Part shown: positions 43,972 through 54,171 of the stretch, piece by piece
Layout: each line of letters opens with the position of its first letter
Numbering within the stretch: the first letter of the stretch is position 1
Assembly (NCBI RefSeq): GCF_030013595.1
Contig: NZ_CP122768.1
Length of the DNA stretch: 64,000 nucleotides
Source: Escherichia coli
GTDB lineage: Bacteria > Pseudomonadota > Gammaproteobacteria > Enterobacterales > Enterobacteriaceae
Strand: one strand, 5' to 3'
The notes under the pieces: generated by a model
Database searches by the model: none
What the model was told of the DNA's origin: nothing
What the model saw: only the letters and a program-made list of their open reading frames with translations
Made by a program: the position numbers and the translations under genes

Positions 43972-43998
43972 TTTGGTCACGAGAGTATTCAAAACACG
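43972..43998 (+). repeat. degenerate direct repeat of the proL 3' end (putative distal att core)
   Basis: ttggtc-acgagag-tattcaaaac versus tRNA end ttggtcggcacgagaggatttgaacc at 54172..54197. Confidence 0.45.
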
Positions 43999-44047
43999 CC
44001 AATAACCTCTTGATTCAATTGAAGTCGAAAATTTTAAGTCAAAAATC

Positions 44048-44072
44048 GTATAGCTTAACGTGTAGCTAAAAA
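44048..44072 (+). repeat. 25 bp repeat shared with 54029..54053 (putative integrase arm-type sites)
   Basis: gtatagcttaacgtgtagctaaaaa versus gtatagctaaacgtgtagctaaaaa (24/25 identical). Confidence 0.6.
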
Positions 44073-44100
44073 TGTTTGCTGCAAAAGTATACAATTTTAA

Positions 44101-44321
44101 CCGTTATGACTCCCTGTTATCCGTTATCAAGCTGGTGGATGATCATGGATAACCCGTTATGGGAATCCCCATATCGGCATCAGGCCCATGCCATAACAAA
44201 AACCCCATATTCGTGGGTTTTCTGTGTTGTGGCTATTCTGCCGTTGCCGTGCTGGTGGATATTTCCGGTATGTGGCTCACCATATCGGCATCACGCCCAC
44301 CAGCGCGACGCATTTTTTTAA
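44101..44321. repeat. degenerate tandem duplication (about 120 bp unit), non-coding
   Basis: repeated blocks ccgttat..., gctggtggat..., c(c/a)ccatatcggcatca(g/c)gcccat/ccagc. Confidence 0.5.
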
Positions 44322-44622
44322 TTTCGCGGGTGTAAAAATTTGACGGGGCGGGCGGTCCTATAAGCAATGGGGGGTAGGGATTTCGATCCCCCCTCCTGAA
44401 TGCAATTTTCCGTATGTGGCTGTGCGGCAATCATACTCGTCACATGTTTTTGACAATAAAAGGCCCGACCGTGAGACTCACAAACAAAAAAGTTACGGAG
44501 AAACAGGGGATCGGGCTCGGTTGCCGCTAAATCTATTCAATTAAAAGAAGATGTCAATAGGGAAAACGAAAAAAAACAATGCTGATATTGTCATAATTTG
44601 AACAAAACCACTATATGTAGTT

Positions 44623-44853
44623 TTAGTTCATGAGGTTAGTCGCTACCAGATGCGTCAATAGTTTTTTGCTATTAATAATCCCTCTTTTTCCATCGGGAGC
44701 TTTGCACTTGTCACTACCTGGTAACTCCTGGTGGCGTTCCTGTTGCAGCACAACGGAAACAGGCGCTGAACACCTGTTAATTTTGCTTGCAGGTTGTTTG
44801 ATTTCGGCAATGCTGCGGATCATCTCCAGCATATCGGCTTCGGTGATGGTCAT
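44623..44853 (-). CDS. hypothetical small protein (island-distal gene)
   Basis: 76 aa ORF downstream of the TTGACAC repeat array; no recognisable family. Confidence 0.4.
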   Translation of the reverse strand: MTITEADMLEMIRSIAEIKQPASKINRCSAPVSVVLQQERHQELPGSDKCKAPDGKRGIINSKKLLTHLVATNLMN

Positions 44854-44880
44854 GATTTACACCTTAGGAAATCTTAGGGG

Positions 44881-45140
44881 CTGGTTGACACTTTCCGGCT
44901 TAAGACCTTAACAAATCTTAACATCGCAGGTTGACACACTTGACACTTTTTCGCGAAAAACCTTATCAAACCTTAGCATTTCTAAGCATGGCAACTTGAC
45001 ACTTTTCGCGATTTTTTCGGCTTTTTGACGTGGTAAATCTGGCGCAAAGCCAGTAACGGCGGGGTTTACAGCGAGGTTGACACTTTTTCGCGTTCAGAGT
45101 GTAAAGTGTCAACCTGGCAAGCTGCTCAACTTGACACTTT
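44881..45140. repeat. array of at least 6 TTGACAC(T)TTTTCGCG repeats
   Basis: copies at about 44883, 44929, 44938, 44995, 45075 and 45129, plus one inverted copy at 45103; irregular spacing. Confidence 0.7.
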
Positions 45141-45146
45141 TTGAGG

Positions 45147-45674
45147 TCATTGATGGCCTGATTTTTCCCACTCAGCCAGGGCGTTTAGTCCGGCTTCACT
45201 CCAGTTATCCAGCTCATCGGGACAATCACCTGCAACATAGCAGAGCTCACAACGCAGCATACGAATTGCCAGCCTGGCATTTTCCCGAAAATCATACTGC
45301 TCAAAGTAATATTGCCCAGCATAATCCTCAAGGCAGATAGCACCATCATCAAGAAATTGCACTTCACAGCATAGTTCCCCGGCTGCATCCTGTACACGCT
45401 GCTGTATGTCATTGTCCGTTACTGGTGCAGGGATTTTACCGTCTCTGGCCTTAACTGCTTTCCAGAACTCGCCCCACGTCATTTCCAGCGTTCTCTCTGG
45501 CCACATTTCAGAAACGGTATCTTTTCCCTGTGCTGGTGGGCTGTTCCGCTGCTCTGTCGCTTCCACATCGATTTTTTTACCGGACATGACCACTTCGCCT
45601 TTCTCGATCCAGTCGTAAACTGTCTGGCGGCTTACGCCTTTGTGTTTGGCATATTCTGCCTTGCTCATAAACAT
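45147..45674 (-). CDS. HTH DNA-binding protein with Nu1/TerS-like N-terminus (candidate packaging-redirecting protein)
   Basis: 175 aa; N-terminal AEYAKHKGVSRQTVYDWIEKG helix-turn-helix, Cys-rich C-terminus; located next to the repeat array. Confidence 0.5.
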   Translation of the reverse strand: MFMSKAEYAKHKGVSRQTVYDWIEKGEVVMSGKKIDVEATEQRNSPPAQGKDTVSEMWPERTLEMTWGEFWKAVKARDGKIPAPVTDNDIQQRVQDAAGELCCEVQFLDDGAICLEDYAGQYYFEQYDFRENARLAIRMLRCELCYVAGDCPDELDNWSEAGLNALAEWEKSGHQ

Positions 45675-45844
45675 GACACTTCCCCTCAGACTGTATTAAT
45701 GCGCCGGAAAGCGCGTGTATTTAAATCATCCCAGGAACCGTTGAGCACCAATTAGTTGCGCGAAGTAATCGGCACCAGCGTTCCGAACAATTTCCAACTT
45801 AACGTTCTGATCATTGTTTCCTGCTGCAGGGACAATCCCACGAT

Positions 45845-52193: not shown

Positions 52194-52261
52194 CGTGTTT
52201 TACCTCATTAATCCGGCGTATTCCGGTGATAAATACGGTAAAACAGGGCAGGGCGGGAAAA

Positions 52262-52295
52262 ACAGTACCCACCGTTTTAAAACGGTACCCACTGT
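52262..52295. promoter_or_regulatory. palindrome ACCGTTTTAAAACGGT flanked by GTACCCAC repeats upstream of alpA
   Basis: perfect 16 bp palindrome 52271..52286 about 80 bp upstream of alpA start. Confidence 0.4.
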
Positions 52296-52325
52296 TTTTT
52301 ATCTCATTGATTTCGCTTTCTTTTT

Positions 52326-52358
52326 GCAAAAAAATAGCGACCGCAAGGGCCGCTATTG
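52326..52358 (-). terminator. terminator after the 80 aa ORF
   Basis: minus-strand hairpin atagcggcccttgcggtcgctat followed by T-run. Confidence 0.55.
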
Positions 52359-52361
52359 TGA

Positions 52362-52604
52362 TTACCGCTTCCACTTCTTAGGTCGCCCACCGCATTTAAG
52401 GCTGGTGGGTCTCAGCACCTTGTCGATGCTTTCAGCCAGATTTTTCGATGCGCCACGCGAGCGCAAAAAACTGACTACCTCGTGTTTTGTGGGGGCTGTT
52501 GATTTGTCTTCCGGATCGTACGTTGACCAGAATTCACGATTTGCCATTAAGGCCAACTGAAGACCTTCACCATAGGCAGGGGATACCTTTTCATTGAAAA
52601 ACAC
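52362..52604 (-). CDS. hypothetical small protein between int and alpA
   Basis: 80 aa ORF followed directly by a terminator; basic C-terminus. Confidence 0.4.
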   Translation of the reverse strand: MFFNEKVSPAYGEGLQLALMANREFWSTYDPEDKSTAPTKHEVVSFLRSRGASKNLAESIDKVLRPTSLKCGGRPKKWKR

Positions 52605-52720
52605 CTGGATAGCTCCTTGAATTTCATGATTTGGGTGACTCCTCTCTGTATTGGGTGGGTTGTGGCGATTATACGATGGTTTAGCATGGTTTGCATCGCT
52701 TTTACTGGTTTTTTGTACAG

Positions 52721-53962
52721 TTATACGGCACGGATACCCCTTTTACCACTGGCTATGGTCACTCCAGTTGCTGCGGCCTCTACAAATTCCCCCCACCAGC
52801 GCATAAGCACCACGCGCTTTTCCAGGTAGTTACTTCGGTTATATGCTCGCCTTACCTCGTTCGTGTCCACGTGTGCGAGTGCGGCCTCGATTACGTCCGG
52901 CTCGAATCCTTCCTCGTTCGCTGCTGTACTGAATATGGCGCGTAATCCGTGAGACACCAGCACACCAGCGTAACCCATCCGGCGTAATGCAGCGTTAGCG
53001 GTCTGGCTGCTCATTGGTAGCATTGGATTTTTAAGGCTGGGAAAAACATGTTCCCTGTGTGCGCTGATTGGCTTCATGGTTTCCAGTACAGCCATAGCCT
53101 GACCGCAAAGGGGGATCACATGGTCACGGCGCATCTTCATGCGTCCGGCTGGAATCGTCCAGGTTTCGGCATCGAGATCTATTTCTTCCCAGCGTGCGGC
53201 GGCTGCTTCGGCTGGGCGTGCTACGGTCAACAGTTGCCACTCGATCAGCAATCTGGTTTGCCGTTCTATGCTGGCGACCGATAAATCGTGCATTAGCTGC
53301 GGTAGCTGTTCCGGTCGGATGGTTGGCATGTGCTTTTTGGTGGGTGAGGGAAATGCCTTGCGGACGTTAGCAGCGGTGTTGATGTCAATCAGCCCACTGT
53401 TGGCGGCAAAATCCATCACTTCATTGATGCGCTGCAAAACGCGTTTCAGTGTTTCCAGGTTGCCGCGTGCTTTAATGGGGGTGAGTATCTCAACAAAGCG
53501 GCGAGCGGTGAGGGTATCTATTGGCGTGTTTCCGATGTACGGGAATACGTATTTTTCCAGGGATCGCCAGATATCCTTAATCGTGTTGTAAGCCAGATTC
53601 TGGCCTTTTTTCATCTCGTACCAGTCCGAGGCAACTTTTTCGAACGTGTTGCCCTTTTTCCGACTCTCTGCTTCACGTTTCCGGCGTTCGTGGTCCTGTG
53701 GGTCAACTCCCTTCGCTATGAGTGACCTGTATTCATTCCGTCGTTCTCTGGCATCGGACAGGGAAACATCATTCAGCGATCCGAGGCTGATGATAGTCCG
53801 TTTTTTATCTGCCGGGCGGTAGTACGTAAAACGCCAGATTTTTGATCCGGAGGGTTTCACCAGAAGAAATAATCCTCCGCCATCCTGCAGGGTGTATTCC
53901 TTTTCCCCTGGTCGTGCGTTTTTGATCTCCGTAATAGTTAGTGGGGTGGTTTTTCGTGCCAT
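52721..53962 (-). CDS. int: tyrosine-type site-specific integrase (P4-like)
   Basis: 413 aa; N-terminal arm-binding-like domain, C-terminal catalytic region with HGLRA...RRAYNRSNY; adjacent to tRNA. Confidence 0.9.
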   Translation of the reverse strand: MARKTTPLTITEIKNARPGEKEYTLQDGGGLFLLVKPSGSKIWRFTYYRPADKKRTIISLGSLNDVSLSDARERRNEYRSLIAKGVDPQDHERRKREAESRKKGNTFEKVASDWYEMKKGQNLAYNTIKDIWRSLEKYVFPYIGNTPIDTLTARRFVEILTPIKARGNLETLKRVLQRINEVMDFAANSGLIDINTAANVRKAFPSPTKKHMPTIRPEQLPQLMHDLSVASIERQTRLLIEWQLLTVARPAEAAAARWEEIDLDAETWTIPAGRMKMRRDHVIPLCGQAMAVLETMKPISAHREHVFPSLKNPMLPMSSQTANAALRRMGYAGVLVSHGLRAIFSTAANEEGFEPDVIEAALAHVDTNEVRRAYNRSNYLEKRVVLMRWWGEFVEAAATGVTIASGKRGIRAV

Positions 53963-53978
53963 GTTTTTTTACTCATCG

Positions 53979-54053
53979 GTAGCTATATGCCTGGTCGTAG
54001 CTATACGGCTTTAGCTACACGCTGGACCGTATAGCTAAACGTGTAGCTAAAAA
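53979..54053 (+). repeat. cluster of five GTAGCTA(T/A)A-type repeats (putative integrase arm sites), including the 25 bp copy at 54029..54053
   Basis: gtagctata, cgtagctatacgg, ttagctacacg, gtatagctaaacg, gtgtagctaaaaa. Confidence 0.6.
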
Positions 54054-54171
54054 ATCCGGTTATAACCCTATCTTACCGATTCAATCCGGCGACTGAAAAC
54101 AACAAAAAAGCCCGTTAATCAGTAAATTAACGGGCTTTCAATAGGTTACCGATGCTGTCCGATATTCGATT

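Follow-up and report, generated by a model that had tools for sequence, protein, structure and literature searches.

A stretch of 64,000 nucleotides (nt) from Escherichia coli (contig NZ_CP122768.1; the whole stretch is hereafter called the window) was found to carry an island of 10,198 bp between yejO and the proline tRNA gene tRNA-Pro(GGG) (proL), with yejM on the tRNA side. This element is very probably a Gram-negative phage-inducible chromosomal island (PICI) of the proL/yejM group (EcCI type). Considered as a whole, it is likely best explained as an EcCI-type PICI integrated at tRNA-Pro, with the packaging, late-zone and orf175 roles proposed below. An original prediction, made from the letters of the stretch, had proposed a PICI or a P4-like satellite rather than a prophage. 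The PICI assignment stood, the island being syntenic with EcCICFT073 and showing 76-89% identity to EcCI11368.1, whereas the P4-like one failed.

The boundaries were established by aligning both junctions with an empty site, that of E. coli strain 1190, in which the chromosome is unbroken to TTTGGT(C) at the left and takes up again at TTTGGTC at the right. The predicted limits of an island of about 10.2 kb at proL (43972..54171) proved right to within a few bases. The following features were located at the insertion site and at the island ends:

43972-43978, no strand: distal attachment (att) core TTTGGTC, the crossover region, common to both junctions and to the empty site in the alignment
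43979-43995, no strand: island-borne degenerate copy of the tRNA-Pro 3' end, ACGAGAGTATTCAAAAC, just inside the left core and aligning with the tRNA 3' bases GGCACGAGAGGATTTGAACC
44047-44072, no strand: distal arm-type repeat CGTATAGCTTAACGTGTAGCTAAAAA, a 26-nt direct repeat of 54028-54053 (96% identical)
44154-44299, no strand: unit of about 111 bp, locally duplicated in non-coding DNA at the left end (repeat search)
53976-54053, no strand: integrase-proximal arm-type sites, TAGCTA five times, just upstream of int
54170-54176, no strand: proximal att core TTTGGTC, overlapping the CCA end of tRNA-Pro (junction/empty-site alignment)
54172-54248, minus strand: tRNA-Pro(GGG), the integration target, intact (ARAGORN; Rfam tRNA, 54.9 bits)

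According to ARAGORN, with which Rfam agrees, this is the sole tRNA of the window. The degenerate copy ACGAGAGTATTCAAAAC differs from GGCACGAGAGGATTTGAACC by a 3-nt deletion and by substitutions. A synthetic empty site of 600 nt, made of the 300 nt left of 43972 and the 300 nt from 54172 onwards, was recovered as one uninterrupted stretch from 3784 of the 5426 complete E. coli genomes (best match 99.5%). The segment is therefore an insertion and not core genome: empty-site strains, as the original prediction expected, do exist, and the alternative of a conserved core segment fails. The neighbouring yejO (41282-43873, plus strand) is an intact autotransporter open reading frame (ORF) of 863 aa in the window; the corresponding copy is annotated as a pseudogene in O26:H11 11368 and in ATCC 25922.

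The 26-nt repeat at 44047 and 54028 is the counterpart of TTTGTAGTTATACGTTTGTAGTTATACGG, given as the 'att site core' of yejM PICIs in Table S1 of PMC6092414. Published yejM PICIs have four copies of TAGTTATA where the island has five of TAGCTA, and the integrase differences from these PICIs cluster in the N-terminal 150 residues. These repeats may be arm-type integrase sites that would have co-varied with the arm-binding domain. Between orf76, the last gene, and the left core there are about 650 nt of non-coding sequence. Loci L008 and L005 have a single copy of the duplicated unit of about 111 bp, and unique filler sequence was noted at 44427-44724.

Assignment to the PICIs was examined against the criteria of Fillol-Salom et al. 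(2018) and the five core components used by SatelliteFinder (PMC10085698), the comparison being made at the level of definitions. The island has its own integrase and a specific att site, with the core TTTGGTC at both ends; an AlpA-like regulator lies downstream of int; transcription is unidirectional, all genes except ylcI being on the minus strand; and a replication protein of its own is directly followed by an iteron origin. No tail, holin, portal or connector gene was recognized among the 18 ORFs (at least 60 aa) compared with PHROGs and NCBIfam. The integrase, regulator and replication components of the SatelliteFinder definition are present, and those for capsid morphogenesis and for the small terminase subunit (TerS) occur in unusual form only. 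For the former, there is no major-capsid homolog; a protein with the prohead-protease fold and another with the C-terminus of a scaffold-slot protein were found instead. For the latter, the island has a cos block identical to that of phage phiP27, and orf175 has a weak match to the helix-turn-helix (HTH) of TerS (E 5e-7, 42 aa).

The location is that of a recognized group. Fillol-Salom et al. 2018 (PMC6092414, Table S1) listed yejM-luxR / yejM-aidA as the att gene of six PICIs, namely EcCIATCC25922, EcCIED1a.1, EcCI11128, EcCI11368.1, SdCI1012 and SbCISb227. Two of these published islands were fetched, and both lie between tRNA-Pro/yejM and yejO, like the island of the window. All occupants inspected at the yejM/proL site were PICIs.

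The backbone comprises the following genes and sites, from the integrase towards the late zone:

52721-53962, minus strand: tyrosine integrase of P4-Int type, 413 aa (NCBIfam NF007246, 560 bits)
52362-52604, minus strand: orf80, a conserved small gene (80 aa) between int and alpA, 73-100% conserved in other proL PICIs
51987-52193, minus strand: AlpA-family regulator/excisionase with an HTH, 68 aa (phrog_66)
51486-51704, plus strand: YlcI/YnfO-family small regulator, divergent from the main operon, probable start 51525 (NF041551, 66 bits against a cutoff of 30)
51400-51500, no strand: divergent promoter/operator region, with GTGTAAGACAC inverted repeats and facing promoter-like sites
51122-51388, minus strand: Icd-like protein of about 88 aa (NF033153 and phrog_6196 match ORF residues 196-285 only)
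50571-51129, minus strand: two paralogous small genes, 66 aa and 121 aa (phrog_340; internal repeat)
50267-50566, minus strand: DUF4222 protein (phrog_285)
48855-50270, minus strand: RepA-type replicative helicase, 471 aa (AAA_25, RecA fold, E 7e-44; phrog_2850 over its full length)
48530-48857, minus strand: replication origin, two clusters of AAAGTGAGGA iterons around an AT-rich stretch, laid out as in PMC6092414
47846-48388, minus strand: accessory ProQ/FinO-domain protein (below-cutoff NCBIfam FinO/ProQ matches; the 100%-identical protein of locus L001 is assigned by RefSeq to the ProQ/FINO family)
47562-47849, minus strand: accessory PerC-family regulator (phrog_994 and transcriptional-activator PHROGs)
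47187-47384, minus strand: orf65, a small protein (65 aa), 98% conserved in L001

All the features listed in the original prediction are present, and most of its gene identifications were borne out by these matches. They include the P4-type integrase beside tRNA-Pro(GGG), the AlpA-family regulator and the divergent small regulator with palindromic operators, the GTGTAAGACAC palindromes and facing promoter-like sites lying between ylcI and the Icd-like gene. A further palindrome of 21 nt occurs upstream of the AlpA gene (52258-52299). The five-gene operon with downstream iterons was likewise recovered: its order is icd, 121-aa gene, 66-aa gene, DUF4222 gene and RepA gene, and it ends in the AAA_25 RecA-fold ATPase. 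No recognizable primase domain was detected in RepA, and the same type of helicase is present in the published EcCI11368.1. The eight AAAGTGAGGA iterons (48536-48854), six exact and two with one mismatch, have no exact copy in the rest of the 64 kb, and their count was reached in none of 100 shuffles. Origins with a matching layout have been described for Gram-negative PICIs in PMC6092414.

A 286-aa ORF (51122-51982, minus strand) was rejected as a gene, as only its last 90 or so residues match Icd-like families. The remainder overlaps ylcI in antisense and has a non-protein-like composition; only the C-terminal third is likely to be coding. This ORF, which has a GTG start and covers the alpA-icd spacer, stays 'translatable' in tblastn comparisons with other PICIs, and outside its Icd part it is probably a conserved non-coding leader. 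In RefSeq, partial 'Icd-like' pseudogenes are annotated over the equivalent stretch in other strains.

The ProQ/FinO gene occupies the place of the single-stranded DNA-binding protein (SSB) gene in other proL PICIs. No family match was obtained for orf65 in PHROGs or NCBIfam, nor for ten island proteins with the PADLOC defence models. Apart from the tRNA, Rfam returned only sub-threshold chance matches, and no P4-related or other known regulatory RNA. The presence of RepA and ProQ/FinO prompted the consideration of a conjugative or mobilisable element; this was discarded, since no relaxase or transfer family was matched in the PHROG and NCBIfam searches and the backbone is that of a PICI.

The original prediction had also stated that capsid, tail and lysis genes are absent. 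This held for tail and lysis, as well as for portal, large terminase subunit (TerL), holin and head-tail connector families, none of which was matched by any of the 18 ORFs of at least 60 aa in PHROGs and NCBIfam; it did not hold for the capsid, since two genes related to capsid assembly are present. They belong to a late zone with the following features:

46563-47156, minus strand: orf197, 197 aa, C-terminal part like a phage protein in protease/scaffold position (alignment with a protein of phage Rac-SA53)
45845-46498, minus strand: stand-alone prohead-protease-fold protein, DUF2213, 217 aa (weak Pfam DUF2213 match)
45147-45674, minus strand: orf175, winged HTH and alpha/beta domain, 175 aa, in the Rpp/TerS slot (weak TerS match to phrog_57, E 5e-7, residues 1-42)
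44885-45146, minus strand: AAAGTGTCAA(C) repeat array, six exact copies, interleaved with GCTAAG-type motifs
44623-44853, minus strand: orf76, 76 aa, the truncated remains of the 93-aa gene conserved at the end of E. coli PICIs (slot comparison)
44315-44358, minus strand: cos site of phiP27 type, a 44-nt block TTTTTAATTTCGCGGGTGTAAAAATTTGACGGGGCGGGCGGTCC identical to the annotated cos of the Shiga toxin 2e (Stx2e) phage phiP27
44345-44354, minus strand: 10-nt cohesive-end sequence GGGGCGGGCG (phiP27 annotation), inside the 44-nt block

The DUF2213 protein matches the first half of a Rac-SA53 protein of 430 aa with 54% identity. The gene for the latter follows terS, terL, portal and head-morphogenesis genes and precedes a 205-aa gene and the major capsid gene, which, judged by gene order, is the position of a protease/scaffold gene. 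The C-terminal end of the same protein (residues 295-423) is matched at 64% identity by residues 63-191 of orf197, whose first 62 residues are unrelated to it. The island thus carries the two ends of a single phage head protein in separate genes, with their order swapped and the middle absent. An AlphaFold model of the DUF2213 protein, built with 23 homologs, had a mean predicted local distance difference test score (pLDDT) of 89. Five residues that do not vary in the family alignment, His73, Ser125, Ser127, Asp160 and His161, have been retained by the island protein and may form the catalytic set. In a library of 1.84 billion representative proteins, the DUF2213 domain is nearly always part of proteins of 400-680 aa, so that the stand-alone form is unusual. 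No Pfam domain was detected in orf197, and direct sequence searches of the PDB with orf175, the DUF2213 protein and orf197 gave nothing significant. It can only tentatively be suggested, by analogy, that the DUF2213 protein and orf197 act on the capsids of DUF2213-type helpers. Relatives of orf197, including ALP46870.1 of Rac-SA53, are labelled 'NUDIX hydrolase' or 'TolA' in public records; neither a Nudix nor a TolA domain was detected, and these names are likely a propagated misannotation. The orf197 family also occurs in Salmonella Typhi CT18.

Megablast of the island against 50,697 phage records returned a single hit of 82 nt (44315-44396), to the annotated cos site of phiP27. On the terS side, the flanks of the 44-nt block are unrelated to phiP27. 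With respect to the direction of transcription of the island, the block has the orientation that cos has in the HNH-cos-terS arrangement of the phage. A stretch of 39 nt from the block (44320-44358) was retrieved from five IMG/VR contigs, to which it is restricted in that collection; all five have P27-type HNH, TerS and TerL genes in the order HNH-cos-TerS-TerL, and a portal gene as well where the retrieved stretch reaches far enough. The PICI-specific flank of cos had no match in IMG/VR. Among complete E. coli genomes, the island-type cos end was found in at least 53, and a P27-type terS together with cos in 18 of 5426, including porcine strains. On this evidence, packaging by a P27-type terminase is favoured, and the chances are about even that the block is the working packaging site, recognized by HNH, TerS and TerL of a P27-type helper. 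No lambda-type cosN (GGGCGGCGACCT, up to 2 mismatches) was plausibly placed in the island, whereas EcCICFT073 (locus L002) has two exact copies. These 12-mers, at 11059-11070 (plus strand) and 11798-11809 (minus strand), flank rppA in opposite orientations and correspond to the published cos1 and cos2.

Strain UMNF18 contains a close relative of the island as well as a P27-like prophage with a second PICI inserted in its terL; P27-type phages therefore interact with this satellite family. At the prophage locus (L015, NZ_AGTD01000001.1 1101881-1119948, positions 37-8441), the prophage has an HNH gene, a cos and a P27-family TerS gene. The PICI inside terL has int, two HTH genes, BRO-N, YlcI, Icd, DUF4222, DUF927, SSB and PerC, and looks like the helper-embedded PICIs described for lambdoid phages, here in a P27-type phage.

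The predicted Nu1-like HTH protein beside a repeat array was confirmed in part. The HTH protein, orf175, and the array are there, but the protein is not Rpp-like and its TerS match is weak (42 residues). In an AlphaFold2 model of orf175 (pLDDT 88.7), the N-terminal winged HTH resembles those of excisionases (Xis), and the C-terminal alpha/beta domain had no PDB match with Foldseek. Only 25 aa of the HTH are shared with RppA (E 0.003). The assignment of orf175 as an Rpp homolog or a true TerS was dropped, as no phage homolog was found and the structural likeness is limited to the Xis-like HTH. Redirection of packaging of the type reported in PMC6739421, where an Rpp homolog adjoins a lambda-type cosQ/cosN with a PICI-specific cosB, does not apply here either: there is no lambda cosN, and orf175 is not Rpp-like in fold.

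Homologs of orf175 form 68 clusters in Enterobacterales, and the HTH residues are invariant across the family. In E. coli, the slot of orf175, before the conserved 93-aa gene, is that of RppA, TerS-like or DUF1441 proteins in other PICIs. In Pantoea, Serratia and Enterobacter, the homologs (35-63% identity) are encoded by the last sizeable gene of AlpA/DUF4222/primase islands, whatever precedes it, and an array of the motif AAAGTGT(C/A)AAC lies downstream of each of them. In the window, the six exact copies of AAAGTGTCAA are found within 260 nt (44885-45140), and none elsewhere in the 64 kb. This association makes it conceivable, at somewhat less than even chances, that orf175 and the array are a cognate protein-site pair, a putative device for packaging or late control. 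The iteron AAAGTGAGGA (48536-48854) and the unit of the array, AAAGTGTCAA, begin with the same seven bases, AAAGTGA/T. The array motif is unchanged in islands with unrelated replication proteins (DUF927, D5 primase), and the resemblance is therefore probably coincidental. In Enterobacter hormaechei (loci L013 and L014, 7507-8877), a gene for a KAP-family P-loop NTPase lies just upstream of the orf175 homolog; in this PICI-like island it may represent late-zone defence cargo.

Analysis of the distribution among the 5426 complete E. coli genomes showed that about a third of them (1851) share sequence with the island. Coverage of at least 80% at one place was reached in only seven (88-90%), all of them porcine enterotoxigenic E. 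coli (ETEC), with the same locus in the one inspected; the other 1844 share parts. The full late zone was found in 21 genomes, and the part with orf175 and the array in up to 166, including O104:H4 2011C-3493 and strain 83972. Near-identical islands are present, unlabelled, in RefSeq genomes. The integrase translation is 100% identical in three other strains (L001, L005, L006), all annotated as WP_000101918.1. Beside it, one of these strains has a fusion of ClpP protease and capsid together with DUF1441, another has capsid, decoration, HTH and TerS-like genes with a lambda cosN, and the third has the same late module as the island of the window. In strain U90, the integrase is annotated as the same protein and is accompanied by capsid, decoration and TerS-like genes. 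Across strains, one integrase is thus associated with at least four different late modules. The phage types indicated by the cos block and by the genes of the late zone are not the same, which makes the island a mosaic, possibly with more than one helper.

A life cycle can be proposed by analogy with EcCICFT073 and EcCIMP1 (PMC6092414, PMC11773190). The island is integrated at the CCA end of tRNA-Pro(GGG), probably by its own P4-Int-type integrase. A helper phage in lytic growth would turn on alpA; AlpA and Int would then excise the island, AlpA also activating the leftward operon, and the RepA helicase would fire the iteron origin and generate concatemers. These would be cut and packaged by the helper terminase, the phiP27-type cos block being recognized by P27-type HNH, TerS and TerL. 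The DUF2213 protein and orf197 might enter, or compete in, helper procapsids, resulting in interference or head resizing. A more elaborate version appears unlikely: a satellite of two helper lineages, in which a helper protease/scaffold protein would have been split and re-ordered to sabotage or resize DUF2213-type heads, orf175 with its AAAGTGTCAA sites would replace Rpp, and the phiP27 cos would be retained besides.

Several observations weigh against a functional PICI packaged through its phiP27-type cos. Different phage lineages are matched by the cos block and by the capsid-related genes: the protease and the capsid of phiP27 are of HK97 type, and a DUF2213 homolog was not found in that phage. 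The same cos-bearing end occurs in the U90 island, which has a lambda-like capsid module, so the block may have been inherited with the element end as a relic unmatched to the late genes. For orf175, neither an RppC/Rpp nor a lambda TerS structure was among the 50 best Foldseek PDB matches of the model, and a comparison with 50,697 phage genomes gave no match. The truncation of orf76 shows that some decay has occurred. The predicted circular attP junction (CCGATATTCGA-TTTGGTC-ACGAGAGTATTCAAAAC) had no match in IMG/VR or in JGI metagenome contigs, which is weak evidence either way, and no helper phage was found within the 64-kb window. Helper identity, induction, excision, replication and packaging are all inferred here.

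An alternative explanation is that a Rac-SA53-type helper packages the island, with orf175 and the AAAGTGTCAA array as recognition module and the phiP27 cos as an unused inherited relic. The 54-64% identity of the late genes to the Rac-SA53 head protein, the weak TerS-type HTH of orf175 in the TerS/Rpp slot, the association of the array with orf175 across genera and the occurrence of the cos-bearing end in islands with other late modules all speak for it. However, orf175 is found in other genera without the DUF2213/orf197 pair and is thus not tied to that head type, it is not similar to the TerS of Rac-SA53, and the perfect conservation of the 44-nt cos block amid flanks unrelated to phage suggests constraint; we regard this explanation as improbable. 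Somewhat less probable again is a decaying PICI that is no longer mobilisable, a fixed genomic island with historical satellite features. The truncated orf76, the 111-bp local duplication and the unique filler at 44427-44724 would fit such decay, as would the failure to find the attP junction in the collections searched (IMG/VR, JGI metagenome contigs) and the rarity of P27-type prophages (terS and cos in 18 of 5426 genomes). Every backbone gene is nevertheless intact, both att cores and the arm sites are preserved, and the island is present in a minority of genomes, the site being empty in most. Furthermore, three other strains have islands of different composition with a 100% identical integrase gene, a sign of recent recombination and movement.

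A degraded prophage remnant, or a capsid-forming PICI (cfPICI) stripped of most of its head genes, could also leave behind a protease-fold gene, a gene with the C-terminus of a scaffold-slot protein and a cos site. Against this, the entire backbone is PICI-specific and unidirectional, no fragment of portal, major capsid, connector, TerL, tail or lysis genes was detected with PHROGs and NCBIfam, the pieces of phage origin have been rearranged but are intact ORFs rather than broken genes, and the size of 10 kb is typical of PICIs (PMC10085698). Such an origin is very improbable. Membership in the cfPICIs as such was rejected: no match to the major capsid, portal, connector and TerL families of their head module was obtained, and only the protease-fold gene and that with the scaffold-slot C-terminus are present. 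Dependence on a P2-type helper, as a P4-like satellite, has the lowest probability of all and is close to negligible. The integrase (33% identical to P4 Int), the AlpA resembling ORF88/Vis (35% over 37 aa in the comparison with the P4 genome), the Icd-like gene and the size of about 10 kb would agree with it, but an integrase and an AlpA-type regulator are common to P4-like satellites and PICIs and do not discriminate between them. The P4-like class of SatelliteFinder has seven core components, including Psu, Delta, Sid, alpha and epsilon, which it requires (PMC10085698). A tblastn search of all island proteins against P4 revealed nothing for sid, delta, psu, alpha (the primase) or epsilon, and PHROGs gave no match for sid, delta and psu. 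The P2/P4 cos sequence was not found in the island, Rfam gave no P4-related regulatory RNA, and membership in this class is contradicted by direct comparison with the P4 genome.

The EcCI-type PICI at tRNA-Pro remains the preferred reading. Elements of this kind, with this site and this backbone, are known from earlier work, proL/yejM PICIs having been catalogued in 2018. In the literature searched, no description was found of the split protease/scaffold late module, of the phiP27 cos in these islands or of the module of orf175 and array; these are leads rather than findings. The proL series, with one integrase and varied late modules, amounts to a natural swap experiment on the retargeting of satellites to helpers. 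The version in the window is of note for a cos block identical to that of a Stx2e phage and for a complete form found only in pig ETEC among the genomes searched. Should its helpers be P27-type Stx2e phages, the island could reduce the yield of these phages or spread alongside them, and such a link would bear on the ecology of Shiga toxin-producing E. coli in pigs and humans. The stand-alone prohead protease and the module of orf175 and repeats are unstudied candidates for new mechanisms of interference or packaging.

Comparison with known systems places the island closest to the published yejM PICIs. It shares with EcCI11368.1, EcCIATCC25922 and EcCIED1a.1 the locus, the gene order and the two-ended arrangement of arm repeats, with identities of 82.6% for Int and 76% for AlpA (both with EcCI11368.1), 72% for DUF4222 and 89% for RepA (EcCI11368.1). 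It differs from them in its arm motif (TAGCTA instead of TAGTTATA), in having ProQ/FinO at the SSB position of EcCIATCC25922, and in its late zone, where the protease-fold gene, the gene with the scaffold-slot C-terminus and orf175 stand in place of a capsid-protein homolog, with or without a head-decoration gene, and a TerS-like gene.

The original prediction proposed a comparison with the CFT073 island. EcCICFT073 has the order int, HTH regulator, divergent YlcI/YnfO, Icd-like gene, small genes, DUF4222, replication protein, SSB/PerC, late genes, RppA and 93-aa gene, with which the island of the window is syntenic, and several backbone proteins are 51-68% identical (YlcI 58%, Icd region about 51%, DUF4222 68%, PerC 53%). 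Both have an iteron origin downstream of the replication gene. Where EcCICFT073 has a primase, the island has a RepA helicase; the N-terminal 131 aa of the latter match the N-terminus of the primase with 62% identity. The integrases are only 25% identical, and EcCICFT073 uses a different att site (ycfD-phoQ). Its two lambda-type cosN and its RppA are both missing from the island, and its late genes are homologs of those for the lambda E and D proteins, which is not the case here.

Satellite P4 resembles the island in integrase family, AlpA/Vis-type regulator, Icd-like gene, size of about 10 kb and integration at a tRNA gene, as well as in the arm-type repeats flanking the core on both sides, and differs from it in Psu, Delta, Sid, epsilon, alpha and the P2-type cos, none of which the island has. 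Helper-embedded PICIs (PMC10111431) belong to the same satellite family and also have a 'late zone' that captures late genes of the helper; unlike these, the island is chromosomal, at a tRNA gene and not within a prophage gene.

Among the Staphylococcus aureus pathogenicity islands (SaPIs), CpmB shares the C-terminus of the helper scaffold and is known to enter helper procapsids. The likeness of SaPI1 CpmB and SaPIbov5 Ccm, both cited in PMC6092414, to orf197 is that a satellite protein copies part of a helper head protein. Their sequences are unrelated to orf197, the island adds a stand-alone protease domain, and the role that orf197 would have in common with them is putative.

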